Below the pieces are notes generated by a model. The model had not been told where the DNA came from, did not search any database, and was given only the letters and a program-made list of their open reading frames with translations. The position numbers and the translations under genes were made by a program. From positions 1 to 55,165 of the forward strand of contig CAYMZX010000013.1 in assembly GCA_964395115.1 (NCBI GenBank): a stretch of 55,165 bases of DNA. Reading direction: 5' to 3'. Positions 24,363 through 55,165 of the stretch are shown here, piece by piece (within the stretch, counting starts at the first letter, position 1; every line of letters starts with the position of its first letter). Origin of the DNA: an uncultured Gammaproteobacteria bacterium. Its GTDB lineage: Bacteria > Patescibacteriota > Microgenomatia > UBA8517.

Positions 24363-24382
24363 ATTATTCTACCTATAATATA

Positions 24383-24410
24383 TTGACCTTTGTTTTTTTT
24401 GTGCTATTAT
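24383..24410 (+). promoter_or_regulatory. Promoter of the recombinase gene
   Basis: TTGACC (24383-24388), 16 nt spacer, TGcTATTAT (24405-24410). Confidence 0.45.
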
Positions 24411-24469
24411 ATTGTACTTGTTGCCAAAAGATCATGTCTTAATCTAGTAATAAACATTTTAATCATATT

Positions 24470-25333: not shown

Positions 25334-25337
25334 TTTC

Positions 25338-25366
25338 TTCAATCAATTTTTAATTGGTGTTATAAT
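25338..25366 (+). promoter_or_regulatory. Promoter of tRNA-Ile(UAU)
   Basis: TTCAAT (25338-25343), 17 nt spacer, TGtTATAAT (TATAAT 25361-25366). Confidence 0.5.
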
Positions 25367-25388
25367 TTGACTTTAATAGCAGGATTCG

Positions 25389-25464
25389 GGGCTGGTAGTT
25401 CAGCGGTTAGAACGCCACTCTTATAAAGTGGAAGTCGATGGTTCGAATCCATCCCAGCCCACCA
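25389..25464 (+). tRNA. tRNA-Ile (anticodon UAU), CCA encoded
   Basis: GGGCTGG-TA-GTTC-AGCGGTTA-GAAC-G-CCACT-CTTATAA-AGTGG-AAGTC-GATGG-TTCGAAT-CCATC-CCAGCCC-A-CCA. Confidence 0.88.
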
Positions 25465-25495
25465 TCTTTTCTTTTCTATTTTTTGTCAAAAAACC

Positions 25496-28698: not shown

Positions 28699-28709
28699 GG
28701 GGTCCAATT

Positions 28710-30887: not shown

Positions 30888-33432
30888 AGCCCTCTTCGAA
30901 AATTAACGCACTTGCTCCACAGGCCGGACATATATCTCCCGGTCCCTCGACTAAAGTCTCGTTAAACGCGGCCGAAGCCGCTGTGGGGTCATCAGAACCC
31001 GCCAATGCGGGCTGGTCTGCGGGGGCAGAACCGTTAGCCGCCATAACAGCTTCAGCCACGTTTAACGCGGCTTTAACCTGGTCATAGTTAACATCTGCTT
31101 TGTTTTCAATAATATGGTTCCCATTTCCATTTATCTTAAATCCGCAATGATAAGAAAGTGCGGCTGCGATAGCATCGGGCAAAGACCGAATCTTATTTGG
31201 TCCAAAACCGACTGACCGACGACCGCCGATACCGGAAAGCTGTTTGGCGATCTCGTAGGCTCTCTCTTTCGAAGTTAGGCTACCCTTAAGCCTTAACGAG
31301 GTCGAAATGGTCCGACCCAACGCCTCGGCCATGGCCGCCACATCGCTTCCAGCCTTTCCAACATTAATGAAAACTTCCAGCGGGTCTCCGTTTTGATCTT
31401 GGTTGATAGTGACAAAAGCAGTCCCGACAGGTGTGCCAAGACGATAAGTCGAGCCGGTTACTTTAAAAGGCCTTTCTCTCAGGGATCCGCCTCCTGCTGC
31501 TCGCTCTGAATCGCCATCTTTGACTCCCAAATTTAAGACTTGGCTTGTCCGACTACCATCACGAAAGATGGTTATCCCTTTGCATCCGGTTTCCCAAGCC
31601 AGCAGATAGGCTCTCTTGACATCATTGACTCCGGCTTCATGTCGAAGATTTATGGTTTTAGAAACGGCATTCTCGGTATATTTTTGAAAAACCGCCTGAA
31701 CCCGGATATGCCATTTGGGGTCGATCTCGTGAGCTGTTATAAATATTCTTTTTATATCTTCAGGAATCTCTTTAATTTCTCTGACCGTCCCTTTTTCCAT
31801 AACTTTCTTAATTAAATCTTCCGAGTCTAGCCCTTTTTCTTCTAAGATCTTTTGAAAATTGGGGTTGACAAAAGTTAATCGTCTATCGATGTGTTTATCG
31901 GACACGACATGTTGATAAACGACCGCAAAAATGGGTTCAATGCCACTGGATGAACCGGCTATAATAGAAATTGTTCCGGTCGGAGCAATGGTTGTCACGG
32001 TAGAATTTCTTCTAGGTAATTCATTTTTGTAAATAGATATTGGCCAAAGCGGAAATGGTCCGCGTTCTCTTGCTAGTTCCCGACTTGATTCGACAGCCGT
32101 TTCCTGGATTAACTTCATGATTTTTTCCGCCAAATCCATGGCTTTTTCTGAATCGTATGGAATTCCCAGTCTAATCAGCATATCGGCCCATCCGCCAACT
32201 CCGAGCCCAATTCTTCTGATAGCAAGAGTCATCTTTCTTATTTGTGGAAGGGTGTAAGGGTTAACTTCAATGACATCGTCAAGAAATCTAACCGCCAACT
32301 TTGTCACCTCTATAAGCCTTGCCCAATCAACACTTTTCTTTTCTCCCTCTTCTTTAACAAAATGGTTCAAAAAAATACTGCCTAAATTGCAGGAATCGAA
32401 TGGGTAGAGTGGCTGTTCCCCGCATGGATTCGTGGACTCGATGGGTCCCAGAGAAGGAACGGGGTTGGCTGGGCTTTTATTTATCCTATCAATAAAGACT
32501 AGTCCAGGATCCCCTGTTTCCCAAGCCTGCTGACAAATTTTATCAAAAACCTCAACGGCGCTGGCTTTGCCAACTGCTTTGCCCGTTCTCGGATCAATCA
32601 GACTATATTCGCCACCCCTTTGATAGGCTTTCATAAAATTATCGGTTAAGGCAACCGAAATATTGAAATTGGTTATTCCGCCATCTCTTTTACAGCGAAT
32701 AAAATCCAAAATATCCGGATGGTCAACCCTTAAAATTCCCATATTGGCTCCTCTTCTCTTTCCGCCCTGTTTAATTTCGTTGGTAGCGGCATCGAAAATC
32801 TTCATAAACGATACCGGCCCAGAGGCAGTACCTCTTGAAGTCTTGACCATCGAGCCCTTGGGCCTGAGGCGACTAAAGGAGAATCCTGTTCCCCCTCCTG
32901 TCTGGTGAATTAATGCCTGCCATTTAAGGGCATCAAATATTCCCACTAAAGAATCTTCTATAGGAAGAACAAAACAGGCGGAGTATTGGAGACCGTTTCT
33001 GGTACCTGCATTCATAAGGGTGGGAGAATTGGGAAGAAATTCACGAGAAACCATAAGTTGGTAAAACCTCTTGGCAATTTCAATGATGGATGTCTTTTTT
33101 GCCCCCCAGATGGCCTCGCTTGATGCCACTTCCCACGCAACCCGCCAACACATCTCTTCTGGAGTTTCTATAACTTTTCCACTCCTGTCCTTAAGAAGAT
33201 ATCTTTCTTGAAGAACTTTTAGGGCTTGGGGTGTCCAGTTTCCTTTGGGAGCCGAGTGATAAAGCGGAGGCCGTTTTCCAACCAACTTGTCTATTTGATC
33301 CCTGACTTGATTATAGTCTGAAAACTCTAATGACTCGAAAGATAATCCTTTGGAATTCGTCTTCACGACCCTGCCGTTTTTACGACCTCGGCGTTTTTTT
33401 GTTCGACTCGCTTGTATGATTGTATTAAGCAT
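30850..33432 (-). CDS. nrdJ: Adenosylcobalamin-dependent (class II) ribonucleotide reductase, paralogue 1, no ATP-cone, extended C-terminal region
   Basis: Catalytic loop TNPCGEQPLYPFDSCNLGS. TSCPD-like segment (VTGSTYRLGTPVGTAFVTINQD...VFINVGKAGSD). C-terminal 6-Cys tail CPAC-x10-CEKCHAC-x4-C. Confidence 0.9.
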   Translation of the reverse strand: MLNTIIQASRTKKRRGRKNGRVVKTNSKGLSFESLEFSDYNQVRDQIDKLVGKRPPLYHSAPKGNWTPQALKVLQERYLLKDRSGKVIETPEEMCWRVAWEVASSEAIWGAKKTSIIEIAKRFYQLMVSREFLPNSPTLMNAGTRNGLQYSACFVLPIEDSLVGIFDALKWQALIHQTGGGTGFSFSRLRPKGSMVKTSRGTASGPVSFMKIFDAATNEIKQGGKRRGANMGILRVDHPDILDFIRCKRDGGITNFNISVALTDNFMKAYQRGGEYSLIDPRTGKAVGKASAVEVFDKICQQAWETGDPGLVFIDRINKSPANPVPSLGPIESTNPCGEQPLYPFDSCNLGSIFLNHFVKEEGEKKSVDWARLIEVTKLAVRFLDDVIEVNPYTLPQIRKMTLAIRRIGLGVGGWADMLIRLGIPYDSEKAMDLAEKIMKLIQETAVESSRELARERGPFPLWPISIYKNELPRRNSTVTTIAPTGTISIIAGSSSGIEPIFAVVYQHVVSDKHIDRRLTFVNPNFQKILEEKGLDSEDLIKKVMEKGTVREIKEIPEDIKRIFITAHEIDPKWHIRVQAVFQKYTENAVSKTINLRHEAGVNDVKRAYLLAWETGCKGITIFRDGSRTSQVLNLGVKDGDSERAAGGGSLRERPFKVTGSTYRLGTPVGTAFVTINQDQNGDPLEVFINVGKAGSDVAAMAEALGRTISTSLRLKGSLTSKERAYEIAKQLSGIGGRRSVGFGPNKIRSLPDAIAAALSYHCGFKINGNGNHIIENKADVNYDQVKAALNVAEAVMAANGSAPADQPALAGSDDPTAASAAFNETLVEGPGDICPACGASALIFEEGCEKCHACGYSEC

Positions 33433-33868
33433 TTTCTATTGCTTTTTCAAAATCGGTCAGATCCTCGAATTGTAAATAAACGCTGGCAAAACGAAGCCAA
33501 GCTACCTTATCGATCTTTTTTAACTTCCTCAATACCGACTTTCCGATCATTTTGCTCGAAATTTCCTCCGATCCGTGTCTTAATATTTCTCTTTCAACTT
33601 CGTTGATAATTTCTTCTACTGAATCAAGCGACACCGGTCTTTTTTCAATCGCTCTAAGTATTCCCCTTCTTATCTTCTCGCGATCAAAGGGTTCTCTCCG
33701 CCCATCTTTTTTTATAATCCAGAGAACGGTCCCTTTTACCTTCTCGAATGTCGTAAACCTTCTATGACAGCTCTTACACTCCCGCCGCCTTCTTATCGCC
33801 TCGGCATCGTCAACTGTTCTAGACTCTAAAACTTCGGTTTTATTGCCGCCGCAAAATGGACATTTCAT
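33425..33868 (-). CDS. nrdR: Transcriptional repressor NrdR
   Basis: Zinc ribbon MKCPFCGG...CKSCHRRFTTFE followed by an ATP-cone. 8-nt overlap with the nrdJ start. Confidence 0.92.
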   Translation of the reverse strand: MKCPFCGGNKTEVLESRTVDDAEAIRRRRECKSCHRRFTTFEKVKGTVLWIIKKDGRREPFDREKIRRGILRAIEKRPVSLDSVEEIINEVEREILRHGSEEISSKMIGKSVLRKLKKIDKVAWLRFASVYLQFEDLTDFEKAIENA

Positions 33869-36628: not shown

Positions 36629-38854
36629 ATGAAAAAATTTTTTCTAGGAATACTTAGGCGGCTCGCCAAATCTCTTAAAAAAGAATATACCCGAAAAAAA
36701 ATTATCTTCTTTACAGTTTTGCTGACCTTTTTTTTCTGGCTTTTTTGGGGAGTACCGCTTCCCACCAATCTTTCGTCGGAAAAATACCCCGTCTCCACCA
36801 AGCTTTTTGACCGAAAAGGAAATCTTATTTATGAAATTTATTCCGAAAAAAGAAGAACGCCTATTAAGCTGGACGACCTTCCGAATTATGTCCGAGAGGC
36901 AACTATTTCTATCGAAGACAAAGATTTTTATCGGCACTACGGGTTTTCTTATACAGGAATTGCCAGAAGTATTTATAACATCCTGGTCAAACAAAAGCTG
37001 CAGGGCGGTTCGACACTAACCCAACAATTGGTCAAAAACGTTCTTTTGTCTCCGGAGCGAACAATTAAAAGAAAGGTCAGGGAATTTTTTCTGACTATGA
37101 TCACTGAGGGAGTTTACACCAAAAATCAAATTTTGGAAATGTACCTTAATCAAATTCCTTACGGTTCGACTGCCTACGGTATTGAGGCGGCGGCGGAACT
37201 CTATTTTGGAAAAGCGGCCAAAGATTTAAACCTAGCCGAGGCTGCCCTTTTAGCCGGCCTGCCCCAAAGTCCTACTAAATATTCTCCTTTTGGGGCTCAT
37301 CCCGAACTGGCCAAAATTAGGCAGGAAACCGTTTTGAGAAGGATGGTTGAAGACGGATATATCAGCCAGGAAGAAGCTGACAAAGCCAAAAAAGAAGAGC
37401 TTAAATACGCTGAAGTTCGGCCACCGAGAGCCCCTCATTTTGCTTTATGGATTAAAGAGCAACTGGCAGAAAAATATGGAGAAAAAATCGTGGAGCAGGG
37501 AGGCCTAAGAGTGACTACTACTTTAGATTTGGAACTTCAGGAGTATGCCCAAGAAGCAGTGGCAACCGAAGTGGCAAAGTTGAAAAAGCAAAAGGTTGGA
37601 AACGGGGCAGTAATTGTTACTCGACCCTCAACCGGAGAAATTTTAGCCATGGTCGGCTCCAAGAACTATTTTGCTACTGATGAGGATGGAAAATTTAATG
37701 TTGTTCTATTCGGTAAAAGACAACCTGGTTCATCGATTAAACCTCTTAATTATGCTTTAGCTATTAAAGACAGAAAAATAACGGCGGCGACTGCTTTCGC
37801 TGATGTACCAACCTGTTTTGAAGTCGCTGGCCAACCTGATTATTGTCCATCAAATTACGACAATACCTATCACGGCTTGGTTACCGCAAGGTTTGCTCTT
37901 GGAAATTCTTATAATATCCCTGCGGTCAAGGTGTTGGCACTCAATGGGGTTGAAAATTTCGTCAAGTTTGGCAAAGAAATGGGGCTATCCACCCTTTCGG
38001 ATCCCTCTAATTATGGGCTTTCGCTTACTCTGGGGGGAGGAGAAGTAAAACCAATCGATATGGCCGTGGCTTTTGGGGTATTTGCCAACGAGGGTATTAA
38101 ACAGCCCCTTATCTCGATAATTAAGGTTGAGGACTGGAAAGGCAAGATCTACGAACAAGTGGACTTGGATAAAATTGAGCTTTCGGGAGAAAGAGTGTTG
38201 GAGCCCGAGGTAACTTTTTTAATTTCCCACATACTCCTTGATAACAATGCCAGATCGCAAGCCTTTGGCGAAACCTCCTATTTGAATGTCCGGGGACATC
38301 CGGAGGTTTCGGTAAAGACTGGTACTACCAACGACAGGCGTGACAACTGGGCGGTCGGATATACAAAATATGCGGTGGTCGTTTCTTGGGTAGGCAATAA
38401 TAACTATGAACCCATGAGCGGTGCAATTTCAGGAGTATCGGGGGCATCCCCTATCTGGAATAAAATTATGAAGAAAGTTCTAGACAAAGCCGAAGATAAG
38501 TTTTATTCCGAGAAAGACGGAGGGCATGCTTGGCCATCTCCTCCGGCAGGAATTGTTGGCAGTAACATCTGTGTCACCACCGGTATGCTTCCGCCTGGAG
38601 GAGAGGAAAATCCTGGTTGTCAGACTAGGTTCGAATATTTCTTGAAGGAAACCGTCCCTAAAAACCTTGAAATGGAATTTAGACAAGATATTCCCATCGA
38701 CAAAACCAACGGACAAATGGCCGGCCCGCAAACGGCTCCTGAGTTTATTGAAATTCAAAATCGCCCTGTTTTTATTGACCCCTTAGGAGTCATTTATTGT
38801 TTGGACTGTCCAATCGCTTCAGCCGCGGCGACTGTCCGTTATCCGCCCCGCTAA
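36629..38854 (+). CDS. Class A penicillin-binding protein (GT51 transglycosylase + transpeptidase), copy 1
   Basis: GT51 motifs EDKDFYRHYGF and GGSTLTQQLVKN. Transpeptidase motifs SSIKP, SYN and KTGTT. Confidence 0.9.
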   Translation: MKKFFLGILRRLAKSLKKEYTRKKIIFFTVLLTFFFWLFWGVPLPTNLSSEKYPVSTKLFDRKGNLIYEIYSEKRRTPIKLDDLPNYVREATISIEDKDFYRHYGFSYTGIARSIYNILVKQKLQGGSTLTQQLVKNVLLSPERTIKRKVREFFLTMITEGVYTKNQILEMYLNQIPYGSTAYGIEAAAELYFGKAAKDLNLAEAALLAGLPQSPTKYSPFGAHPELAKIRQETVLRRMVEDGYISQEEADKAKKEELKYAEVRPPRAPHFALWIKEQLAEKYGEKIVEQGGLRVTTTLDLELQEYAQEAVATEVAKLKKQKVGNGAVIVTRPSTGEILAMVGSKNYFATDEDGKFNVVLFGKRQPGSSIKPLNYALAIKDRKITAATAFADVPTCFEVAGQPDYCPSNYDNTYHGLVTARFALGNSYNIPAVKVLALNGVENFVKFGKEMGLSTLSDPSNYGLSLTLGGGEVKPIDMAVAFGVFANEGIKQPLISIIKVEDWKGKIYEQVDLDKIELSGERVLEPEVTFLISHILLDNNARSQAFGETSYLNVRGHPEVSVKTGTTNDRRDNWAVGYTKYAVVVSWVGNNNYEPMSGAISGVSGASPIWNKIMKKVLDKAEDKFYSEKDGGHAWPSPPAGIVGSNICVTTGMLPPGGEENPGCQTRFEYFLKETVPKNLEMEFRQDIPIDKTNGQMAGPQTAPEFIEIQNRPVFIDPLGVIYCLDCPIASAAATVRYPPR

Positions 38855-38883
38855 TCTTTAATTAAATCTGCTAAAATACCTTA

Positions 38884-41274
38884 ATGGCGCGGGGAGCCAG
38901 AAAAAAACCAAATGTATACCTTGCCCTCCAAATAGCAAAGCGGCCTCTCTTTGTTCTTAGCAGGCTCCTCATCCTTGTTGGCAAACCGCTTTATTTTGTT
39001 CTTATTACCATTCTCTTTTTTGCTTATGTTCTAGGCCGCTCTAGCCGTCTTCTTTCTGAACGGTTGTTTAGATTAGTTAAAAAGACTTGGCAAAGAGAAA
39101 GAGCGAGATTTACAAAATTAACTCTTTTTAAGCTTCCGCTGTTGAAAATCATCCTCCCAAAACCAAAAATAAAAATTACTCGACGGGCTAAAATTATCTT
39201 TTTCTTTTTGGTGATTCTCTTACTGGGTTTTGCTTTTTGGTTTCCAATTCTTAAAGACCTCCCTTCGCCCAAAAATCTTTTAACCCGCGATCAGGAAGTC
39301 TCGACAAAAATCTACGATCGAAATGGTGTTCTTCTATATAAAATCTACAAAGAGAAAAATAGAACACCCGTCCCCTTAGAGAAGATCCCTCTTCAAGTAA
39401 GATTGGCCACATTAGCTGCAGAAGATGCGGAATTTTATAACCATCCCGGTTTTTCGATAAGGGGTATTATTAGGGCTATCATCAAAAATTTAAAAAGCGG
39501 CCAGGTCTCTGGCGGGTCTACCATCACTCAACAGTTAGTCAAGAACGCCCTCTTGTCGCCGGAAAAAACCTTAACCCGCAAGATAAGAGAGATCATTCTT
39601 TCGATTGGAACAGAACTTACTTTTTCCAAAGATCAAATTTTGGAAATGTACCTTAATGAGGTCTCGTATGGGGGGACCGCTTATGGGATTCAAGAAGCCT
39701 CAAGGCTCTATTTTGGCAAAGACGTTAACAATCTTTCGCTGGCAGAGGCGGCTTTGCTGGCTGGTTTACCTAAAAGTCCTACCAAGTATTCCCCTTTTGG
39801 GCCCAATCCTGAACTTTCTTTTTCCAGACAAAAAGAAGTCCTTTCTCTCATGCGTATAAATAAATACATTACTCCCCAGCAGGAAGAGGAGGCTGAAAAC
39901 CAAAGATTGTCTTTTGCTCCCAATAAAATTGATATTAAAGCCCCTCATTTTGTTATGTATGTCAGACAAGTTTTGGTGGATAAGTATGGTGAAGAGGTCG
40001 TTGAAAAGGGTGGCCTCGAAGTTACTACTACCCTTGATTATTCAATACAAAAAATGGTCGAGTCGGTAGTAAAGACTGAAATAAACAAACTGTCCCGTTT
40101 GAATGTCAAAAATGGAGCAGCTTTGGTTTTGAACCCAAAAACCGGAGAGATTTTGGCCATGGTTGGATCGAAGGATTATTTCGACTTAAGTAATGATGGG
40201 AATGTAAACGTGACCGTTCGACCAAGACAGCCGGGTTCTTCAATCAAGGTCGTCAATTATTCATATGCTCTTTCTCATGACTATACCCCTGCCACAATTT
40301 TATCTGACACCCCGGTTACCTTTTCTATTCCAGGCCAACCCCCTTATTCCCCAAAAAACTATGACGGAAATTATCGTGGCAATATAAGTCTTAGAAGTGC
40401 TCTGGCAGAAAGCAGGAATATTCCCGCTGTCAAGGTCCTAGCTTCTTATGGTGTTGCCAAGATGGTTGAGCAGGGACAAAAAATGGGAATTACTACTTGG
40501 AATGACCCTGCTAGATTTGGTCTTTCTCTGACTTTGGGAGGAGGGGAAGTAAAATTGATTGATTTAGCGGCGGTTTATGCGACTATAGCCAACTACGGGA
40601 AAAAAGTTGAGTTATTTTCCATTCTCAAAGTTACAAACTATAAAGGAAAGATTCTTGAGGAGTATGAATGCAGGGAAAATAATTTATTAAAAACAACCGA
40701 GGCTTCCGAAGACAAATGCGGGAAACCAGAAGTTCTTGATCCAAGAGTTGCCTATCTTCTTATCGACATCCTAAAAGACAATTCTGCTCGCTCGCCTGCT
40801 TTTGGATCAAACTCTGCCCTGGTCATCCCCGGACATCCAGAGGTGGCCGTCAAGACAGGAACAAGTAACGACCTTAAAGATAATTTAACTTTCGGTTTCA
40901 ACCAAAACTATCTGGTAGCTACTTGGGTTGGTAATAATGACTCTTCCCCTATGGCCAGGGTGGCCTCCGGCATCACTGGCGCTTCTCCGATCTGGAACAA
41001 AATTATGCGCTTTTTACTTGCAGAAGAACCTAGTCAGGAGTGGCCGATTCCTAATGGATTGGTTCAAACTCCAATTTGCAGCCTAACCGGAACTCTTCCT
41101 TGCGGAGGGTGCACTATTAAAATGGAATGGTTCCTAAAGGAAAAAGTTCCCACCAAAGCCTGCTCGCCAGAAACAATCCGGAGAATAAAAGAAACAAAAG
41201 AAAAGGATGGCCAAATTCTGGAGCCCGCCGCCTCCACCGAAAATCCTCTCCGTTTCCCGAGATCTTTCCCTTAA
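38884..41274 (+). CDS. Class A penicillin-binding protein, copy 2
   Basis: AEDAEFYNHPGF, GGSTITQQLVKN, SSIKV, SRN and KTGTS. Same domain order as copy 1, with a longer basic N-terminal region. Confidence 0.9.
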   Translation: MARGARKKPNVYLALQIAKRPLFVLSRLLILVGKPLYFVLITILFFAYVLGRSSRLLSERLFRLVKKTWQRERARFTKLTLFKLPLLKIILPKPKIKITRRAKIIFFFLVILLLGFAFWFPILKDLPSPKNLLTRDQEVSTKIYDRNGVLLYKIYKEKNRTPVPLEKIPLQVRLATLAAEDAEFYNHPGFSIRGIIRAIIKNLKSGQVSGGSTITQQLVKNALLSPEKTLTRKIREIILSIGTELTFSKDQILEMYLNEVSYGGTAYGIQEASRLYFGKDVNNLSLAEAALLAGLPKSPTKYSPFGPNPELSFSRQKEVLSLMRINKYITPQQEEEAENQRLSFAPNKIDIKAPHFVMYVRQVLVDKYGEEVVEKGGLEVTTTLDYSIQKMVESVVKTEINKLSRLNVKNGAALVLNPKTGEILAMVGSKDYFDLSNDGNVNVTVRPRQPGSSIKVVNYSYALSHDYTPATILSDTPVTFSIPGQPPYSPKNYDGNYRGNISLRSALAESRNIPAVKVLASYGVAKMVEQGQKMGITTWNDPARFGLSLTLGGGEVKLIDLAAVYATIANYGKKVELFSILKVTNYKGKILEEYECRENNLLKTTEASEDKCGKPEVLDPRVAYLLIDILKDNSARSPAFGSNSALVIPGHPEVAVKTGTSNDLKDNLTFGFNQNYLVATWVGNNDSSPMARVASGITGASPIWNKIMRFLLAEEPSQEWPIPNGLVQTPICSLTGTLPCGGCTIKMEWFLKEKVPTKACSPETIRRIKETKEKDGQILEPAASTENPLRFPRSFP

Positions 41275-41303
41275 TTGAAATTTCTATACCTTATAAACTA
41301 GAA

Positions 41304-42380
41304 TCAATTTTTGGTTTCGAGATCGTAGAGCTGTTCGGCAATCTTTGGGATCACTTCATCGGCCTCTCCCTCTATGACGCCGTCTGACATGATCACCAAA
41401 ACAAAAGGAGAGGGAGCAAACACTATTCCGGCATCATTAACTGTATGGATTTCCCGTCCATATTTATGGGCAACCTTTACCTCCTTAGGTATTCCGGCCA
41501 CCAACCAATTCTCGTAAGCAGTATTGGTAAGATAGTCCAATATTTCTTCTTGTCCTTTCTTGGAAAGAATCTCTTGATTCCAAAGCTTCTTAAAAAAATT
41601 GCCAATATCTTCGGGGGTAGTCCTATTTTGATCAAGAGAAGTTTTCTCCATCCCTATTTCCGAAATCAACTTGTTTATCTTATCATCTCCAAGTAAACGC
41701 CTGACTATTCCAAAAGCGGTATTGTCGGATTCTTTTCCCATGTAGCGCGCCAGTTCCCGATATGTTACTACCGTTCCCGCTGGTCTTGAGGCCAAGATGC
41801 CAGCCCCAGGAACTTTATCGGTCTGTTTGAGGGTATATTTTGTTTCTAAATCAAGACGTCCTTTTTCTGCTTCCTTGTATAAGGTTGCCAAAACAGGAAG
41901 TTTGATTAGGGAAGCTGCCTGCATTGTCTCTCTCTCGTTAACTCCGTAAGAATATCCTTTTCTCAAATCGATAACCAAGAAGGCGTAAAGGCCAGAGCGA
42001 TTTTTTGTCAACTCCTTAAATTTGTTTTTGGCCTCCTTAATTTTTTCCTGATCCTTGTCGCTCACGTTTTTATCACCGACAATAATTACTTCCTCCCCTA
42101 AAAAATCGGGGAGCGATATCCTCGGCAATCCTGGTAATTTCCAATTTCTGGCCGATACCGCCAACCCGGCCGCTATAATTATTGTTGTTAGGAAAACGAA
42201 GAGCGTCATCAGTCTTTCGCGTCTTCCCCAAGGTTTGATGGGCTCTTTTCTTTTTTTTCGATTTTCGGGTTTTAAGTCTTTAAATTTTCTTGGGTTTGGT
42301 TTTCTCTCGTCTAATTTTTGCAAATCTTCCTCGTCGTAGTCGTACCCTTCGTCTTCTGCGGGTCTATTAAAGATTGGCAT
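41304..42380 (-). CDS. Membrane-anchored serine hydrolase, class A beta-lactamase-like fold
   Basis: Charged cytoplasmic N-terminus and one TM helix. S-x-x-K (ASLIK), SDN (ESDNTA) and a KYG triad-like motif. Confidence 0.65.
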   Translation of the reverse strand: MPIFNRPAEDEGYDYDEEDLQKLDERKPNPRKFKDLKPENRKKRKEPIKPWGRRERLMTLFVFLTTIIIAAGLAVSARNWKLPGLPRISLPDFLGEEVIIVGDKNVSDKDQEKIKEAKNKFKELTKNRSGLYAFLVIDLRKGYSYGVNERETMQAASLIKLPVLATLYKEAEKGRLDLETKYTLKQTDKVPGAGILASRPAGTVVTYRELARYMGKESDNTAFGIVRRLLGDDKINKLISEIGMEKTSLDQNRTTPEDIGNFFKKLWNQEILSKKGQEEILDYLTNTAYENWLVAGIPKEVKVAHKYGREIHTVNDAGIVFAPSPFVLVIMSDGVIEGEADEVIPKIAEQLYDLETKN

Positions 42381-51175: not shown

Positions 51176-51838
51176 CTAGGCAGTAAAACCCTCGGTTAAA
51201 TCCTCTATTTCTCGACGAGGATCCTCCGCCTTCACCACGTCAGTGGCCACCGCCACGCCGACTGCTCCCAACTCCAAACTCCTTTTAACATCATCCCTAG
51301 AATTGATTCCTGCCCCAACAATAAGAGGAACTCCTGCTTCTTTGGCTAAGACTGACGCCTTGGCGATTACTCCCGGCTCGGCTTCAGCTACGGATACTTC
51401 GGTACTACCAATCAACTCGGGAGGCTCGTAGGCAGCAAAAGTGGGTTTAAGTTCCAAAACTCTTTTCAGCTCGTCCATATCCCCGGCAAAAATCATTGTT
51501 TTCAGATCCACTTCCCGGCAACGCAGGGTGGCTTTGATTAATTGCCCCCAGTCGTCAAATTTGCGCTCGGAGTGGTTTAGAAACACCCCACGGATACCAA
51601 TTCTAACGGCTTCCTCGGGAAGGGTCGACCCCGTATGGGGACCATAGGAAACCGGATCGATATGTTGTATCCAGACCTCAAGACGCGTCGAGTTGACCAC
51701 CAACTCGGCATCGATTATCTGAACAACGGGAATTATTTTGACTTGGGTAGCGTGGGATACTTCCTCCAAAATCCTGGTTAAAGCCACTGCTTTGTGTCCA
51801 CTTCCTTGTTCGTAAGTCTTAAAATTTACAAAAATCAT
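51176..51838 (-). CDS. tpiA: Triosephosphate isomerase, short archaeal-type
   Basis: 220 aa. MIFVNFKTYEQGSG, LNHSERK and VGAGI resemble archaeal TIM rather than the ~250-aa bacterial form. Confidence 0.7.
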   Translation of the reverse strand: MIFVNFKTYEQGSGHKAVALTRILEEVSHATQVKIIPVVQIIDAELVVNSTRLEVWIQHIDPVSYGPHTGSTLPEEAVRIGIRGVFLNHSERKFDDWGQLIKATLRCREVDLKTMIFAGDMDELKRVLELKPTFAAYEPPELIGSTEVSVAEAEPGVIAKASVLAKEAGVPLIVGAGINSRDDVKRSLELGAVGVAVATDVVKAEDPRREIEDLTEGFTA

Positions 51839-52092
51839 TCTTGGATACCGAGTACGGCGTTTATTTTTCCTTTGTCAAAACCGACAATTTTTTCTTTCGT
51901 TCCATCGTCTTTGGTAACAACCGTAAAGGGTACCCCCAGAAAACCGCCCGAATTTTCCATCATCTCATCTCTGGCGGCTTCGTCTTGATCGACTAATTTT
52001 TCAATGTAAGTAATATTTCTAGCCGTCAAATAGTCCTTGAGCATCTTGCAATAAGGACAGGTGGTTGTCGAATAAATGATTATTTGCGACAT
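51835..52092 (-). CDS. Glutaredoxin-family protein (NrdH/YruB-like)
   Basis: IIIYSTTTCPYCKMLKDYL and GVPFTVV; 85 aa. Confidence 0.85.
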   Translation of the reverse strand: MSQIIIYSTTTCPYCKMLKDYLTARNITYIEKLVDQDEAARDEMMENSGGFLGVPFTVVTKDDGTKEKIVGFDKGKINAVLGIQE

Positions 52093-52093
52093 T

Positions 52094-52525
52094 TTACCTC
52101 ACCTCCAATTGTCCTTTCATTCCCATTTCTTCATGATTTCCTAAACTACAGTATATCTCATAAATCCCAGTCGCTGGAGCGGTAAATTCCAAAATATCCT
52201 CTTCGCCCGGTCCTATGGTTTTGCTGGTAACATTAACTCCATCAATAACCAAATTGTGAAGAGAAAATCCTTGATTTTTGAAAATTATTTTTACTTTCTG
52301 ACCTGAGGAAACGGTTAAGGCGGCCGGTTCGAATGAGTACTCTTTCCCGATAATTGTTATCAATTGGACGCTTTCATCGCTTGAGGGTCGGGGCGTTGAT
52401 TCTTCCTTTTTATTGGAAGTTTTAGGGAGACCTTGCGTTGTCGAAAGAAGATAAATAACCGCCAAGATAAATCCAATAATGACTCCCAAAACTAACCATA
52501 TCTTTTTATCCGCCATAAATTTCAA
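52094..52525 (-). CDS. Membrane-anchored cupredoxin (type-1 copper) domain protein
   Basis: N-terminal TM helix. Ligand pattern H (FSLHNLV) ... YCSLGNHEEMGMKGQLEV (Cys, His, Met). Confidence 0.7.
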   Translation of the reverse strand: MKFMADKKIWLVLGVIIGFILAVIYLLSTTQGLPKTSNKKEESTPRPSSDESVQLITIIGKEYSFEPAALTVSSGQKVKIIFKNQGFSLHNLVIDGVNVTSKTIGPGEEDILEFTAPATGIYEIYCSLGNHEEMGMKGQLEVR

Positions 52526-52580
52526 ATAAGATTCTTCGGGGTTAATACCGATCCTTTTTTAATTTACCACAAAACGAAGA

Positions 52581-53075
52581 TTAGAAGGAGCCCTCTAGAA
52601 TGTGCGTTTCCGGCTTTCCGTCATTTATTTTTTCTAGGGTAATAACTACTTTCTTGTAATCTGAATAATCTTTATTTGACTCAAATTCAAGTAGATACCC
52701 GCCTTTGGCAATCCTCATCTTTCCGGTTGAAACATATGCAAAATTAGCATCCCCCTCATTTCCCCTCACCAACCAGCCTTCATAATAACCGTCTACTTCT
52801 GGATCAGTCAAGTCGGCCAAAACCGCGTGACTGAAACGGCCCGATTGATACTTTCTGGTGGCAATACCGCTTCCTGTTCCGCCCGAAACGTCGTTCAATT
52901 CGGCTTTTTCAACATCTTCAGGAATCTCAAAATTGAATGTTTTTTCAATTTTTTCTTCAACTGACGGAGTCGCCAATGGAAGAGGTTTGGGGGTCCTGGT
53001 CCGCCTGATTGCAACAATGGCGCCGGCCAAAACTGCCAAAATTATAAGTCCAATTACTATATCCCGACCTTTCAT
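52581..53075 (-). CDS. Membrane-anchored protein, C-terminal domain resembling the anti-sigma-K RskA extracytoplasmic domain
   Basis: TM helix (IVIGLIILAVLAGAIVAI), then YYEGWLVRG...VVITLEKINDGKPETHILEG. Leaderless-type promoter TTGACA-17-TACTTT-6 nt-ATG upstream (53118-53076). Confidence 0.35.
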   Translation of the reverse strand: MKGRDIVIGLIILAVLAGAIVAIRRTRTPKPLPLATPSVEEKIEKTFNFEIPEDVEKAELNDVSGGTGSGIATRKYQSGRFSHAVLADLTDPEVDGYYEGWLVRGNEGDANFAYVSTGKMRIAKGGYLLEFESNKDYSDYKKVVITLEKINDGKPETHILEGSF

Positions 53076-53162
53076 ACCCGAAAAGTATCACGACCCTATC
53101 ATTTTGTCAAACTTCCACATAATAATTCCCGCACATTCCCCGCAAAATTACCGCATGCCTTT

Positions 53163-53336
53163 TCAGGAAAGTTTTGCATATACTCCGAAAAGCGCCAAAA
53201 CCGCGGCCACCAAAAGCCATTGAGTCGAAGCTAACCAAATATCGTATCCTAGATAACCGATGCCGGAAAGGATCACGGCAGTAATCGAAAGTGCCATTAA
53301 TAATTTTGACAACTTGTTAAGATCGTTCTTCTTCAT
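53163..53336 (-). CDS. Small (57-aa) two-TM membrane protein, below the ORF-track cutoff
   Basis: My translation: MKKNDLNKLSKLLMALSITAVILSGIGYLGYDIWLASTQWLLVAAVLALFGVYAKLS. ATG 53336 is preceded by the strong SD GGGGGTGAG. Confidence 0.5.
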   Translation of the reverse strand: MKKNDLNKLSKLLMALSITAVILSGIGYLGYDIWLASTQWLLVAAVLALFGVYAKLS

Positions 53337-53373
53337 TCATCTCACCCCCTCTTTTTTTATTCTAACATAGCCC

Positions 53374-53401
53374 TTGACATTAGATTCCAAAAAAGCATAA
53401 T
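53374..53401 (+). promoter_or_regulatory. Promoter driving the riboswitch leader
   Basis: TTGACA (53374-53379), 16 nt spacer, CATAAT (53396-53401). The predicted start lies just before the P1 helix. Confidence 0.55.
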
Positions 53402-53408
53402 GAGTTTG

Positions 53409-53513
53409 CGAGACTGTGTTTAAGGAAGAAGGTGGAATTCCTTCGCTGTGCCGCAACCGTAATTACCCACAAAATGGGGTAAAGCCGGAAAACTAACAGC
53501 CTCGAAGTATTCC
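53409..53513 (+). promoter_or_regulatory. Cobalamin riboswitch (compact, AdoCbl-variant / class II-like)
   Basis: P1 CGAGACTG / CAGCCTCG. Core AAGGAAG-GAAGG(TGGAATT)CCTTC-GCTGTGCCGCAACCGTAA. Hairpin TTACCC/GGGTAA. B12-box-like AAGCCGGAAAAC. Downstream ATTCC (53509-53513) is complementary to loop GGAAT and sits next to the SD AGGA. Confidence 0.75.
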
Positions 53514-53524
53514 GAGCAGGAAAA

Positions 53525-54349
53525 ATGTCAATTGAGCAAAATTTAGAGACTGCTGTTAGTTTTATTCAAACTTGGAGAGAAAAACCGGGTCGAATTCTCA
53601 CGGAACTTATTTCCCTTCATAATGAAACGAACAGGAAGCCGGACCGCTATCTATTAGAGATTATAAACGGCGAATTGATAGACCCCCTGACCCGAAGGCC
53701 GGTCAAGGAATTTATCGATACAACCTCTTATTTGGGTAAAATTGAAGCCGATATCGCCGTCGAGTTGGGAAAGCGGGGCGAAAAAAACGAAGGCGAACTG
53801 GCCGTCTGGATAACTCCTCCCTACCCCGGTATCTATCCTTCCTCAAAAATTATCATCCACAGACTGGTTTTTACCGGGGAAGGTAGAAAAGTCTGGGATA
53901 GCGTGGCAGTTCTTTTTGAAGCCGAGGAAAAAGAAATATTAAACCTAATCCCAGATCCAAAAATAAAAACCCTTGAAGACTTAAGGAAAAAATTATTTGT
54001 ATTTAAGAATGGCGAGGAAGCTCTCTTTAAAATTCAGTCGAAACTGGAAACATGTCTGACCCGGTGCTCAAGTGAAGAAGAAGAACTATTTCTTCGGGCA
54101 AAATACTTTAGACAAATGATAATGAGCAACGTCTCTCCTTTCTTAATCGCCAAAGCAATGGGAAAGGTTGGTTTTTTGGGAGTACACGCTATCAGCTGCG
54201 GCCCAACATTCTCGCAGTTATTTACTCCAGTCTCTATTACTGAGGGGAAATTTGTGGTCAAGTGCGGGAATTGCGGGGCGCCTATAAACGCCGTTATTTC
54301 GAAAGGCTATCTCTGTCCAAATTGTGGTGGAATTTATGAGGGTTGCTAG
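53525..54349 (+). CDS. Uncharacterised 274-aa cytoplasmic protein with C-terminal Cys-rich zinc-ribbon tail; cobalamin-riboswitch controlled
   Basis: Long ORF with SD AGGA. No signal peptide or TM segment. Ends KCGNCGAPINAVISKGYLCPNCGGIYEGC. No family recognised by eye. Confidence 0.7.
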   Translation: MSIEQNLETAVSFIQTWREKPGRILTELISLHNETNRKPDRYLLEIINGELIDPLTRRPVKEFIDTTSYLGKIEADIAVELGKRGEKNEGELAVWITPPYPGIYPSSKIIIHRLVFTGEGRKVWDSVAVLFEAEEKEILNLIPDPKIKTLEDLRKKLFVFKNGEEALFKIQSKLETCLTRCSSEEEELFLRAKYFRQMIMSNVSPFLIAKAMGKVGFLGVHAISCGPTFSQLFTPVSITEGKFVVKCGNCGAPINAVISKGYLCPNCGGIYEGC

Positions 54350-54391: not shown

Positions 54392-54466
54392 TCCGGTGTA
54401 GCTCAGCGGTAGAGCGGGTCCCTGTTAAGGACAAGGTCGGAGGTTCGAATCCTCCCGCCGGAGCCA
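54392..54466 (+). tRNA. tRNA-Asn (anticodon GUU), CCA encoded
   Basis: TCCGGTG-TA-GCTC-AGCGGTA-GAGC-G-GGTCC-CTGTTAA-GGACA-AGGTC-GGAGG-TTCGAAT-CCTCC-CGCCGGA-G-CCA. U1-A72 and G73, as in bacterial tRNA-Asn. Confidence 0.9.
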
Positions 54467-55165
54467 GGCTTGACGAGAGGCGTAAAAAGCTATCTTGTCA
54501 AAGGGATTTATCCAGTCGTATTGGGCTTTTTTGCCTTCAAGCCGTAAGTTCTGAAGTACCATCTTCAAAAGTAGCCGTTTTTCGTGGACTTCAGAACTTT
54601 CAAACAGTTTGCCTGCGTTAGAAGCCAGTTTTAGCAGGTATTCTGAGGTCAAATAGTATTCCTCATCGGCATAGTTTAGTTTGCCGATTTTCTTTGTAAT
54701 TTCTTTCTGTTTTGCCCGATACTCTTTTCGTTTTTCTTCATACTTGTCCTTAGTAATACTACCGAGCAGATAGTCATCATAGGCTTTCTCAATGCCTGTC
54801 TCATATTTTTGATGTTCAGTCTGATAGCGGTTTAGCAAGTCGTGGTAAAAATCTGATTTGTGTTTATGGTTGGTCTGTAGTGCTTCAATAATGTCGTCTA
54901 CGGCTTCTTGTGGCATTTGTAGCTTATCAAAGACGGCTGAAAACTGCTTAGTCAGGTCGTCCTCTGTCAGCCATTCAGCCCCGTGCTTGCCGTTGTATTG
55001 AGTGCAATGGTAATAGTGATAGGTCTTACCGCTTTTCTTAATTTTCCTTTCAGGGGTTATCAGACAACCACAATCGGCACATTTGATTAAACCTCGGTAT
55101 AAGAAGGGTAAACCAGCGTATTTGAAGTGTTTTTTATGGTGTCCTGCTTTAATCTCTTGGACTTT
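54425..55165 (-). CDS. Large serine recombinase, C-terminal part (5' end beyond the window); its 3' end reads antisense into tRNA-Asn
   Basis: The frame is open to the window edge. The upstream part translates to ...LPFLYRGLIKCADCGCLITPERKIKKSGKTYHYYHCTQYNG... (recombinase zinc beta-ribbon), followed by a long coiled-coil region. The last 14 codons are antisense to the tRNA. Confidence 0.75.
   Translation of the reverse strand, partial: KVQEIKAGHHKKHFKYAGLPFLYRGLIKCADCGCLITPERKIKKSGKTYHYYHCTQYNGKHGAEWLTEDDLTKQFSAVFDKLQMPQEAVDDIIEALQTNHKHKSDFYHDLLNRYQTEHQKYETGIEKAYDDYLLGSITKDKYEEKRKEYRAKQKEITKKIGKLNYADEEYYLTSEYLLKLASNAGKLFESSEVHEKRLLLKMVLQNLRLEGKKAQYDWINPFDKIAFYASRQAWLRREDSNLRPCP

Follow-up and report, generated by a model that had tools for sequence, protein, structure and literature searches.

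The window analysed here, a stretch of DNA of 55,165 nucleotides, contains a short leader followed by an open reading frame of 274 amino acids, which raises the question of what kind of RNA precedes this gene and what its product, here called protein X, contributes to the cell. The first-pass annotation had proposed a cobalamin riboswitch controlling an uncharacterised zinc-ribbon protein in a B12-dependent genome. This observation is confirmed and its interpretation is partly supported, and the interesting part of the locus is the protein family X, not the riboswitch. The elements of the leader are the following.

53374–53401, + strand: promoter-like site, TTGACA-16 nt-CATAAT, sigma-70-like (11/12 consensus positions; a consensus match only)
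53409–53504, + strand: cobalamin aptamer closed by P1, delimited by end-to-end alignment to RF00174 and by a leave-one-out model
53409–53417 with 53496–53504, + strand: P1, with one A-C mismatch (53413/53500)
53428–53444, + strand: P4/L4 hairpin GAAGG-UGGAAUU-CCUUC, i.e., the GAAGGUGGAAUUCCUUC hairpin, with the GGUG..A.UCC motif, aligned to the RF00174 consensus cccGGUGcaAauCCggg
53445–53462, + strand: GCUGUGCCGCAACCGUAA segment
53447–53455, + strand: P5/L5, with pairs U53447-A53455 and G53448-C53454 and loop UGCCG (53449–53453)
53457–53493, + strand: P6 and B12 box, with the P6 base CCG (53457–53459) paired to CGG (53486–53488)
53463–53482, + strand: optional 6-bp hairpin in P6, missing from many relatives
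53483–53493, + strand: B12 box (J6/3), AGCCGGAAAAC
53505–53509, + strand: J1/13 linker AAGUA, 5 nt, comparable in length to the 7-nt wild type
53510–53521, + strand: P13/L13 platform, with stem UUC (53510–53512) and GGA (53519–53521) and loop CGAGCA (53513–53518)

On comparative sequence evidence, the leader is a genuine cobalamin riboswitch, and as a riboswitch it is ordinary; together with its platform, the compact element spans 53409–53521. The Rfam covariance scan proposed in the first-pass annotation returned a full-length match to RF00174 (Cobalamin; model positions 1–189), with E = 1.8e-5 in the 231 nt searched; when all 4227 families were scanned over the entire window, E was 0.0043. 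Its 27.4 bits fall short of the gathering score (31.5), and the leader is therefore absent from a default Rfam scan. Because this match lies under the curated threshold, it is only through comparative evidence that the leader has a covariance-model hit to rely on. A leave-one-out covariance model, made from 20 related leaders with the window excluded, gave the window leader 103.8 bits (E = 4e-21) as its sole match within the 55 kb. Across 22 leaders, 97.1% of cells were paired versus 34–45% with slid partners, double-sided changes were present in 12 pairs, and the observed values were reached in 0 of 500 shuffles; RNAalifold independently recovered P1, P4, P5, P6, and P13. The P1 pairs carry 3 to 8 double changes apiece, the P4 stem pairs 9, 9, and 11 compensatory changes, and the P6 pair 53458/53487 is C-G in nine leaders, U-A in 13, and broken in none. 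The conserved core, which lies entirely within 53409–53504 and consists of the P3-P6 junction, the GGAA of J3/4, the GGUG..A.UCC hairpin of L4, the B12 box, and the P1 closure, is invariant or near-invariant across these leaders, and CUGUGCCGCAAC at P5/L5 is invariant in nearly all of them.

The score under the Rfam cutoff and the unremarkable free-energy z-score of the leader alone (−0.82) might be taken to indicate a decayed or chance look-alike in front of a constitutively expressed reading frame. This explanation is effectively refuted by the score in the leave-one-out model and by the intact state of all helices and of the platform in the window. In addition, there are orthologous leaders with scores above the Rfam gathering threshold (L010 with 40.7, L023 with 37.8, L008 with 33.9, and L019 with 45.8 against RF01689), and an identical leader is present in a separate metagenome contig (L134).

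A compact riboswitch without a P6 extension is strongly supported, and it is probably of class II (AdoCbl-II). P6 has no P7–P11 extension and is made up in the window of a 3-bp base and the optional 6-bp hairpin; many relatives do without this hairpin, and their aptamers measure about 72 nt. RF01689, the model of a subtype that is selective for small upper ligands (HyCbl, MeCbl), is the best Rfam model for the relatives L004, L017, L019, L021, L025, and L028; for the window it is RF00174, in a scan where overlapping lower-scoring matches of the same clan were not displayed.

The expression platform points to control of translation. According to a previous study, from which the L5/P13 naming is also taken, a kissing-loop switch of this kind requires a ribosome-binding site in L13, presentation of L13 on a stem-loop, at least one unpaired nucleotide, and a short J1/13, whose wild-type length of 7 nt was found to be important (PMC5028336). 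The window architecture fits these requirements: a purine-rich ribosome-binding stretch, GAGCAGGA, lies inside P13/L13, L13 is presented on a stem-loop, a nucleotide is left unpaired, and the linker is short. The P13 stem covaries among leaders (UCC/GGA, CUUC/GAAG, UUUU/AAAA, and UCU/AGA), and (U/C)CCGAGCAGGA-N1-6-AUG is kept in homologue leaders although the proteins are only 25–42% identical; the resulting distance of 1–6 nt between the purine stretch and the AUG is short for canonical Shine-Dalgarno spacing. L5 is complementary to L13, and this pair is conserved. Compensatory variants were found in L009 (UGUCG with CGAACA) and in the second copy of L062 (UACCG with CGAGUA), and as two independent changes they lend the L5-L13 kissing-loop register support that is modest in extent; the partial second copy of L080 has an uncompensated C-A mismatch. 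Between the aptamer and the start codon of the window, the + strand has no terminator-like site, and a transcription-terminator mechanism was rejected for this copy. Second riboswitch copies in other genomes have a hairpin followed by a U-run.

The riboswitch thus defined would most likely block translation via the L5-L13 kissing loop. The promoter at 53374–53401 places the predicted transcription start at about 53408, at the foot of P1, and would drive a short mRNA in which the switch takes up the first ~115 nt. Corrinoid bound in the P3-P6 junction would make L5 dock on L13 with A53515 bulged; since the P13 hairpin is predicted to bear the ribosome-binding purines 3 nt 5′ of the AUG, docking would hide them, and translation is proposed to be off when B12 is plentiful. 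A similar promoter is located directly 5′ of the short leader of the homologue L015, which has no riboswitch.

Several details given in the first-pass annotation can be judged at this point. The promoter, the GAAGGUGGAAUUCCUUC and B12-box motifs, the GCUGUGCCGCAACCGUAA segment, and the P1 helix that it had quoted are all present, and its proposal of a cobalamin riboswitch that controls translation is supported. The GGUGGAAUUCC hairpin that it had labelled L5 is actually P4/L4. The kissing pair that it had proposed, AUUCC with GGAAU, is complementary in the window and is not conserved, as only 51% of cells pair, no better than in the controls; AUUCC was rejected as the L5 partner, being the 5′ strand of P13, and the real L5 is UGCCG.

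The same window carries B12-related genes at a distance from the leader.

28174–28737, − strand: PduO-type ATP:cob(I)alamin adenosyltransferase (PF01923 at 1.2e-48)
28710–30887, − strand: second class II AdoCbl-dependent ribonucleotide reductase (RNR) gene, above the TIGR02504 NrdJ_Z cutoff, with a six-Cys tail
30850–33432, − strand: class II AdoCbl-dependent RNR gene, TIGR02504 NrdJ_Z (704.5 and 586.8 bits for the two genes; cutoff 399.95)
33425–33868, − strand: nrdR, with NrdR domains

The B12 dependence of the source genome, as claimed before, is supported by the two NrdJ_Z equivalogs and PduO, and the class II enzymes are the only ribonucleotide reductases encoded in the window. Both NrdJ proteins end in six-Cys tails. 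A TrxB-like protein (2862–3830) and a glutaredoxin (51835–52092) are also encoded in the window. The pduO gene is unlinked to the X gene in this genome, whereas in other genomes it is co-operonic with X or with a long form of it.

53525–54349, + strand: reading frame of family X, 274 amino acids, an unannotated family delimited by exhaustive HMMER search
54197–54346, + strand: Cys-rich C-terminus of X, with Cys225, a predicted C4 zinc ribbon, and the terminal C274

A word-indexed homologue search recovered the query alone and its profile version only seven proteins, while the exhaustive HMMER search gave a family of 233 representatives (clusters at 50% identity, E ≤ 1e-3). Residues 1 to ~222 form an alpha/beta domain in which E34, E74, K108, and R154 are invariant and S30, D40, W95, S97, P98, and G219 are near-invariant. 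The AF2 model of X reached a pLDDT of 90.7, and a single-sequence AF2 model only 38. The description of X as uncharacterised and soluble holds, as it had no match in Pfam or NCBIfam and no transmembrane segment was found; 60 members searched against the same two collections gave nothing but zinc ribbons, and no fused domains were found by Pfam in longer members. In the PDB, the X profile matched only the ribbon, and Foldseek found no match at E ≤ 1e-3 (TM-score ≤ 0.26), nor a meaningful match in BFVD. No sequence or fold similarity was detected to PduO (PF01923), MMACHC/CblC, PduS, the Rossmann-type B12-binding domain, BtuM, or CobW, and X can therefore be filed under none of them. A confident match to a known unrelated family, which had been named as a finding that would speak against a B12-related role, was not obtained from the PDB, Foldseek, Pfam, or NCBIfam, and X apparently has a new fold.

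The C-terminus carries the CxxC-x13-CxxC-x6-C end that had been described, with the spacing C247-x2-C250-x13-C264-x2-C267-x6-C274, and is predicted to be a C4 zinc ribbon. It resembles the eL43/L37Ae ribbon (E = 4e-4, profile versus PDB), Pfam ribbon models match it only below their cutoffs, and AF2 places short strands at 242–246 and 253–258. Exactly six Cys within the last 70 residues were counted in 105 of 145 members, and 107 of the 145 have a Cys among the last four residues. The lone Cys225 is conserved in an 'SCP' motif and lies in a low-confidence linker. The echo of the NrdJ tails that had been noticed stands only at the level of the CxxC pattern; significant similarity is missing (BLAST E = 0.53), and homology of the tails was rejected.

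The genomic context of the homologues is more informative about X. The same riboswitch is located directly upstream in 14 of the 15 homologue loci found via protein similarity, and the homologues are linked to B12 genes in recurrent operons with PduO, DUF4430, DUF6580, and nrdJ, as had been anticipated for a B12-related function. A DNA pattern for the C-terminal CGGxYEGC-stop motif yielded 18 loci, of which eight are true X members. In 112 loci found via the RNA, the riboswitch governs X or its long forms, DUF4430 (1.8e-17), DUF6580 (1.5e-52), and PduO (PF01923, 1.8e-51). X or long forms are present in 47–60 of these loci, a share that is inflated because the survey pattern was drawn from leaders of the family; X itself was counted in 32 and the long form long3, which is related to X (hhalign 96%, E = 2e-9), in 14. 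For cluster 1 (long1), a relationship to X is no more than possible (probability 42%, E = 2.6e-4), and none was found for cluster 5 (~520 aa).

An arrangement of nrdJ, the switch, and a DUF4430-DUF6580-PduO-family array recurs, and operons include PduO-long3, DUF6580-PduO-X, DUF4430-DUF6580-PduO-long3, and DUF4430-DUF6580-X; DUF4430 genes behind the switch occur with or without DUF6580. The X gene is often apparently translationally coupled to the gene of the PduO-type adenosyltransferase (ATR), and some operons have a second, dedicated switch between pduO and X or long3. In 48 loci, the window included, the X gene stands alone, and in L046 a DUF4430-DUF6580-PduO operon has no X after it. Transcobalamins have DUF4430 as their C-terminal domain (PMC4350170), and DUF6580 shows a weak resemblance to ECF S components. 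For the L006 proteins with DUF4430 and DUF6580, no solved relative was found by sequence, and the CbrT, BtuM, and transcobalamin chains were unmatched. Nothing on DUF6580 turned up in the searchable library of literature, nor anything relevant that connects cobalamin riboswitches or adenosyltransferase with CPR, Patescibacteria, or Saccharibacteria.

Owing to the riboswitch-controlled regulon and the recurring operon partners, X most likely represents a new component, located in the cytoplasm, of B12 salvage and of AdoCbl supply for NrdJ. The regulon and operon structure suggests a four-part salvage route in CPR bacteria, in which DUF4430 would be the surface corrinoid binder, DUF6580 the membrane carrier, and PduO the adenosyltransferase, with X as the fourth part, and which would provide AdoCbl for the class II ribonucleotide reductases. 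X would most likely act on the corrinoid after import and before adenosylation; as to the chemistry, it may bind the corrinoid and strip its upper ligand, reduce it, or pass it to PduO, as a functional analogue of MMACHC/MMADHC or PduS, and Cys225 and the six-Cys metal-binding tail might serve as cobalt ligand or redox relay. Its solubility, invariant charged residues, and six-Cys tail count for such a role, and the missing homology or fold match to B12-binding or B12-processing proteins counts against it. For dithiol or zinc chemistry, there is no obvious path to cob(I)alamin, which counts against the chemistry proposed for X. The reading as a whole, i.e., a translational B12 off-switch and an X protein that acts on the corrinoid before adenosylation in a CPR salvage route, is considered reasonably probable. 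Among the functions offered for X in the first-pass annotation, handling of corrinoids or a partnership with PduO fits the operon data best, and these data argue against a B12-sparing substitute.

The last of these functions deserves weighing, as a cobalamin off-switch is the classic signature of B12-independent isozymes, and X might be a backup made at B12 scarcity by the logic of metE or nrdEF, for example to provide deoxynucleotides when NrdJ is idle. In the window and in 48 other loci, X forms a monocistronic unit with no link to B12 genes, and the invariant E, E, K, and R look enzyme-like. However, where X is linked, it shares its switch-controlled operon with PduO and uptake genes, which are needed for using B12, no B12-independent isozyme is found among the characterised products downstream of the switch, and a protein of 274 amino acids with no RNR, kinase, or transferase fold match is not a known bypass enzyme, so a backup role appears unlikely. 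Quite improbable, too, is the idea that X serves the Cys-rich C-terminal domain (CRD) of class II RNRs as its missing reductant in the cell or as a redox partner. Loderer et al. 2017 (PMC5704485) reported that CRD-type NrdJ is reduced by neither thioredoxin nor glutaredoxin, both NrdJ proteins in the window have a six-Cys CRD to set beside the six C-terminal Cys of X, and nrdJ is a few genes at most away from X or a long form in ~15 loci. Nevertheless, such a reductant would be expected to be made together with NrdJ at available B12, which is when the switch turns X off; the switch also separates the two genes, with nrdJ ending just upstream of it in 17 loci, against only two loci where nrdJ is downstream, and with a different Cys spacing the likeness of the tails is at pattern level only. 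The zinc ribbon could also belong to a regulator or nucleic-acid-binding factor, such as a B12-responsive translational or transcriptional one, and the ribbon of X is indeed closest to eL43/L37Ae and to TFIIB-/Fpg-type ribbons. Against this stand the lack of an HTH or other DNA-binding domain in X, the large conserved N-terminal domain with its invariant acidic and basic residues, and the enzyme PduO as the consistent operon partner, and we give such a factor about as little credence as a reductant.

The preferred assignment of X to corrinoid salvage can be extended, tentatively and with clearly less confidence than the reading as a whole, to the possibility that X and its long forms are a new-fold cobalamin-trafficking protein within a DUF4430/DUF6580/X/PduO pathway feeding NrdJ, where X would capture imported corrinoid by a cysteine thiolate and its Cys-rich metal site and deliver it, reduced and free of the upper ligand, to the adenosyltransferase. 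CPR/Patescibacteria have tiny genomes, and the RNRs in the window and related loci are B12-dependent, so that the capture, processing, and activation of B12 would be central to their dependence on other organisms, a subject on which no paper was found in the searchable library. A small group of genes recurs under a single riboswitch subtype, and roughly half of the targets of this subtype, a share inflated by the survey pattern, belong to a family without annotation or detectable structural relative. If X processes or hands off corrinoid, a novel type of B12 trafficking protein would have been found, functions would be assigned to bacterial DUF4430 and DUF6580, and a complete minimal pathway from environmental corrinoid to active class II RNR would be described. 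As for the riboswitch itself, it is a lineage-specific variant that has been well sampled, and its natural covariation backs the L5-L13 kissing loop.

Compared with known systems, the window switch resembles the class II or AdoCbl-II type (RF01689, env8HyCbl-type, clan CL00101) in the P3-P6 four-way junction, the GGUG..A.UCC L4, the B12 box, the lack of a P7–P11 extension, the short J1/13, and a kissing loop between L5 and L13 that leaves a purine unpaired and would hide the ribosome-binding site on a short P13. Unlike that type, it scores best against RF00174, below the cutoff of this family; its L5 UGCCG/L13 CGAGCA pair is lineage-specific and almost invariant, the P13 stem is limited to 3 bp, and the purine stretch lies right next to the AUG. 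In Firmicutes, B12 riboswitches control btuFCD operons with PduO-type ATRs. The CPR loci are similar in placing a cobalamin off-switch over putative corrinoid capture, import, and PduO-type adenosylation, but the DUF4430 binder and the DUF6580 membrane protein would replace BtuF and BtuCD, and X or its long form is an extra conserved soluble protein with no counterpart in the classical operons.

Processing or hand-off before PduO-type ATRs is carried out by human MMACHC (CblC) and MMADHC (CblD) before MMAB, and by Salmonella PduS with PduO. X is like these proteins in its proposed position in the pathway and as a soluble protein co-expressed with a PduO-type ATR, which is an analogy rather than membership, and its size is similar to that of MMACHC; it differs in having no sequence or fold similarity to them and no flavin or Fe-S motif. 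A lone Cys ligates cobalt in CblD or BtuM, and the conserved lone Cys of X could do the same. The suggested route from DUF4430 and DUF6580 through X and PduO to NrdJ would have a human parallel in the path that leads from transcobalamin via MMACHC/MMADHC to MMAB. Finally, X and the CRD of NrdJ (PMC5704485) are alike in six C-terminal Cys with plausibly zinc-binding CxxC pairs, and the genes for X and CRD-type NrdJ share genomes and neighbourhoods, whereas the spacing differs (C-x21-CxxC-x13-CxxC-x6-C in X, CxxC-x10-CxxCxxC-x4-C in NrdJ) and the tail of X is joined to a different domain, with no RNR domain in X.

The intergenic region in front of the 274-aa ORF, a member of a protein family here called X, contains a promoter followed by a compact leader, and all motifs quoted in the first-pass annotation (the GGUGGAAUUCC hairpin, GCUGUGCCGCAACCGUAA, AGCCGGAAAAC and P1) are present at 53409-53504. 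Features of this part of the window:

53337-53524: intergenic region, containing the promoter, then the leader
53374-53401: sigma-70-like promoter TTGACA-16-CATAAT, 11/12 consensus matches
53409-53417 with 53496-53504: closing P1
53428-53444: hairpin GGUGGAAUUCC (P4/L4)
53445-53462: GCUGUGCCGCAACCGUAA
53449-53453: aptamer loop L5, UGCCG
53483-53493: B12 box AGCCGGAAAAC
53510-53512 (UUC) with 53519-53521 (GGA): P13 stem, loop L13 = CGAGCA
53525-54349: X ORF, 274 aa
54392-54466: tRNA-Asn(GUU), uninterrupted, 3' of the X ORF

The leader was not reported by a default Rfam scan of the window. The proposed covariance-model check, run as a sensitive scan, aligned its full length with RF00174 Cobalamin (positions 1-189 of the model; E = 1.8e-5 for 231 nt and 0.0043 when the entire window was set against all families), but its 27.4 bits lie below the gathering score of 31.5, and comparative evidence was therefore used for riboswitch identity. 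Leaders of related loci (L numbers) gave cobalamin-clan matches directly upstream of the gene on the same strand, several above Rfam cutoffs, with scores of 40.7 bits in L010, 37.8 in L023, 33.9 in L008, 32.6 in L006 and, against RF01689, 45.8 in L019; ten unrelated control loci gave no riboswitch match. From an alignment of 22 leaders of the window's type, RNAalifold recovered P1, P4, P5, P6 and a small 3' hairpin. In the annotated structure 97.1 % of cells pair, compared with 34-45 % with slid partners, 12 pairs are altered on both sides, and the observed pairing values were matched by 0/500 shuffles. At the base of P6, the pair 53458/53487 is C-G in nine leaders, U-A in 13 and broken in none. 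A leave-one-out covariance model, trained without the window and a duplicate contig, scored the window leader at 103.8 bits (E = 4e-21), its sole match in 55 kb. Judged by these sequence comparisons, the riboswitch upstream of X is real and a decayed riboswitch is effectively excluded; it adds a member to a known class, as a lineage-specific class II-like variant.

All leaders are closed by a near-invariant element, (U/C)CCGAGCAGGA, which lies 1-6 nt before the AUG and folds into the short hairpin P13, whose stem covaries among copies (UCC/GGA, CUUC/GAAG, UUUU/AAAA, UCU/AGA). L13 could pair with L5 as A-U, C-G, G-C, (bulged A), G-C, C-G, and compensatory variants in the same register occur in L009 (UGUCG with CGAACA) and in the second copy of L062 (UACCG with CGAGUA), while one L5/L13 change in the partial second copy of L080 is uncompensated. 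Polaski et al. (2016; PMC5028336) described an L5-L13 kissing loop with the RBS within L13; this design requires L13 to sit in a stem-loop, always leaves one or more nucleotides unpaired and has a short J1/13 linker. The window leader shares this architecture, with AAGUA as its own J1/13 linker, and no terminator-like site was found on the plus strand between aptamer and AUG. From the P13 platform, the L5-L13 variants, the shared architecture and the lack of such a site, the leader is therefore most likely a translational off-switch, as conservation and covariation suggest. The translational kissing loop proposed earlier thus holds in kind and fails in register, since AUUCC with GGAAU (the GGUGGAAUUCC loop) pairs in 50.9 % of cells, no better than shuffles or slides; AUUCC is the 5' strand of P13, and P4/L4 had been mislabelled as L5. 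Natural covariation in a lineage-specific variant is useful support for the L5-L13 kissing loop.

Second riboswitch copies inside operons of related loci:

L033 6884-7032, minus strand: between pduO and long-form/family gene
L111 2069-2179, plus strand: between pduO and long-form/family gene
L112 3522-3642, plus strand: between pduO and long-form/family gene
L129 3978-4081, minus strand: between pduO and long-form/family gene
L145 5529-5654, minus strand: between pduO and long-form/family gene
L036 1471-1568, plus strand: directly 3' of pduO; family gene not detected downstream
L062 581-678, minus strand: directly 3' of pduO; family gene not detected downstream
L122 4685-4801, plus strand: between nrdJ and pduO

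Most of these copies carry an extra hairpin (ACUCCUCGG...GAGGAGU) after P13 and then a U-run immediately ahead of the AUG. Their composite platform resembles a terminator or SD sequestor and differs from the simple platform of the window.

The association with B12 genes was approached from both sides. In a protein-first test, unbiased regarding the RNA, a riboswitch lies directly upstream of the family gene in 14/15 distinct homologue loci (the window, six look-ups and eight from a genome scan), in agreement with the earlier expectation; in the sole exception, L015, a promoter with a short leader precedes the gene. An RNA-first test, a single metagenome scan with the pattern GTGCCGCWACYGT-N21-51-CCGAGCAGGA, gave at least 120 loci, in which the first gene after the switch belongs to the X family in at least 40, a share inflated because the pattern was derived from family leaders. 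The first gene encodes DUF4430 (PF14478, 1.8e-17) in at least 25 loci, the adenosyltransferase PduO (PF01923, 1.8e-51) in at least 12 and DUF6580 (PF20221, 1.5e-52; a weak ECF S-component match) in at least two. Among the matches listed, three clusters of long proteins without a Pfam match also stand first behind the switch. By profile-profile comparison one of them, long3 (410-500 aa), is related to the X family over its full length (hhalign 96 %, E = 2e-9), and another, long1, is possibly related (42 %, E = 2.6e-4). Cluster 5, a protein of about 520 aa without Pfam match, is encoded immediately after the same riboswitch, with nrdJ downstream of it (L042 1535-3090, plus strand; L056, minus strand), and has no detectable relation to the X family (hhalign probability 1 %).

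Six-frame HMM scans placed these genes in common operons: nrdJ, switch, DUF4430-DUF6580-PduO-long3 in L145; nrdJ, switch, DUF6580-PduO, switch, family in L129; DUF4430-DUF6580-family in L006 and L014; and the order nrdJ-PduO-long3 in at least about ten loci. Among the matches listed, the regulated operon includes the family or long3 in 47/112 distinct loci (60/112 counting long1), and nrdJ ends less than 400 nt 5' of the switch in 17/112 and lies downstream in two. The X gene is often immediately 3' of pduO. In the window, a minus-strand cluster (28174-33868) encodes nrdR, two NrdJ_Z equivalogs and PduO. No cobalamin-synthesis families (cob/cbi) were found among about 40 window ORFs scanned, which is compatible with auxotrophy without proving it. 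Transcobalamins have DUF4430 as their C-terminal domain (PMC4350170). By gene order, synthesis of X is tied to the riboswitch that also stands before the genes for corrinoid capture, import and adenosylation.

As first annotated, the ORF has no recognisable family (no Pfam or NCBIfam family, all zinc-ribbon matches sub-threshold), no hydrophobic segment was found in it, and it ends in C247-x2-C250-x13-C264-x2-C267-x6-C274. A word-indexed search recovered the query alone, and an exhaustive HMMER search gave 233 cluster representatives with E <= 1e-3, 100 of them with E <= 1e-10; almost all measure 270-330 aa. E34, E74, K108, R154, C250, C264 and C267 are invariant, and S30, D40, W95, S97, P98, G219, C225 and C247 nearly so; the alignment also shows the motifs S-x3-ETxRxPD, WISPP, KII, LR and SCP. 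Exactly six cysteines occur in the last 70 residues of 105/145 full-length members, and a cysteine within the final four residues of 107/145. A confident alignment-based AlphaFold model (pLDDT 90.7, pTM 0.79) predicts an alpha/beta domain, a flexible linker around C225 and a ribbon. Foldseek found nothing at E <= 1e-3 in PDB (TM-score <= 0.26) or BFVD; in a PDB-sequence profile search the ribbon alone matched, resembling eL43/L37Ae (E = 4e-4). A Pfam scan of all 60 aligned members gave weak ribbon matches only, and longer members have no recognisable extra domains. X is, by its sequence, a soluble, conserved, Cys-rich protein. In L107 (4543-4788, plus strand), an 81-aa ORF behind the same riboswitch contains little beyond the Cys-rich ribbon (…CPKCGTKLRCFFDEVCCPGCL…) and may be a stand-alone form of the C-terminal module.

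The sole public name among members is 'hypothetical protein [Candidatus Woesebacteria bacterium]', and member-bearing genome records are titled Patescibacteria, Woesebacteria and Shapirobacteria, apart from four MAGs labelled 'uncultured Gammaproteobacteria bacterium' (L014 CAYWFF01, L015 CAYITS01, L019 CAZSXP01, L021 CAZCNT01). These four share the window's CPR-type neighbourhood (glutaredoxin, TIM, RpiB, PGK, small membrane proteins), and their labels look wrong. Divergent from X, a conserved cluster (window 51835-53336, minus strand; also L001, L004, L006, L007, L019 and L021) encodes a 57-aa membrane protein, an RskA_C-like membrane protein, a cupredoxin and a glutaredoxin/NrdH-like protein, then TIM-RpiB-PGK-GAPDH; VIT1 and ZIP metal transporters take the place of some of these proteins in L004, L006 and L008. 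The arrangement may reflect synteny alone or a tie to thiol/metal handling.

At the position equivalent to the window's intact tRNA-Asn, the tRNA gene of L014 (1960-2290; exon halves TCCCCGGTAGCTCAGTGGTAGAGC... and ...GGTTCGAGCCCTACCCGGGGA) is split by a group I intron (1986-2229; Rfam 119.4 bits). Directly behind tRNA-Asn, at the window end (54392-55165), a partial ORF on the minus strand carries a recombinase zinc-beta-ribbon domain (PF13408, 8e-8); it probably encodes a large serine recombinase from an element that inserted beside the tRNA. What looks like a second mobile-element junction lies at 23816-27829:

23816-23885 and 23894-23965: two tRNAs, about 0.5 kb upstream of the integrase gene
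23970-24362, minus strand: DivIC-like gene, between tRNAs and integrase
24470-25333: tyrosine-integrase/XerC-like gene
25389-25461: tRNA, after the integrase
25496-27829: TrwB/VirD4-like coupling-protein gene

An Rfam 'Plastid-ycf2' match antisense on the tRNA (25389-25462) is spurious. Within 36629-42380, two tandem class A PBP genes (transglycosylase plus transpeptidase; 741 and 796 aa) are adjoined by a class A beta-lactamase-family gene (41304-42380).

X is probably a component of B12 salvage. It would act within the AdoCbl supply route for NrdJ, apart from NrdJ function itself, because the switch separates X from nrdJ and would turn X off at plentiful B12. The step without a gene in the minimal set would fall after import and before adenosylation, and could consist of removing the upper ligand, of reduction or of passing the corrinoid to PduO; in other organisms MMACHC/MMADHC or PduS carry it out. 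That X performs specific corrinoid processing or hand-off to PduO is a more tentative proposal. Cysteine-cobalt ligation is known from BtuM and CblD, and Cys225, a conserved solitary cysteine on the flexible linker beside the metal-binding ribbon, might conceivably bind cobalt or take part in a redox relay.

A B12-independent substitute would suit control by an off-switch and the many loci where the gene stands alone, but does not fit the co-transcription of X with PduO and uptake genes. A further idea makes X the reductant of CRD-type NrdJ; on one such enzyme thioredoxin and glutaredoxin both failed (Loderer et al. 2017; PMC5704485). The six-Cys tails and the closeness of nrdJ make this idea attractive; however, the regulation points the wrong way, and the echo of the NrdJ tails noted earlier extends to the CxxC pattern and not to similarity beyond it (E = 0.53). 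A nucleic-acid-binding regulator is a possible reading, for which the C-terminal ribbon speaks and nothing else.

In the literature searched, no paper was found that connects CPR bacteria with cobalamin riboswitches or with X, DUF4430, DUF6580 or PduO genes. The regulon logic, in which an off-switch controls uptake and adenosylation, is already known. If the corrinoid-trafficking reading of X is true, X would be a new type of B12 trafficking factor. Compared with the classical regulon, the parts are new: DUF4430 and DUF6580 stand in place of BtuFCD, and X is an additional protein family without annotation or detectable structural relative.
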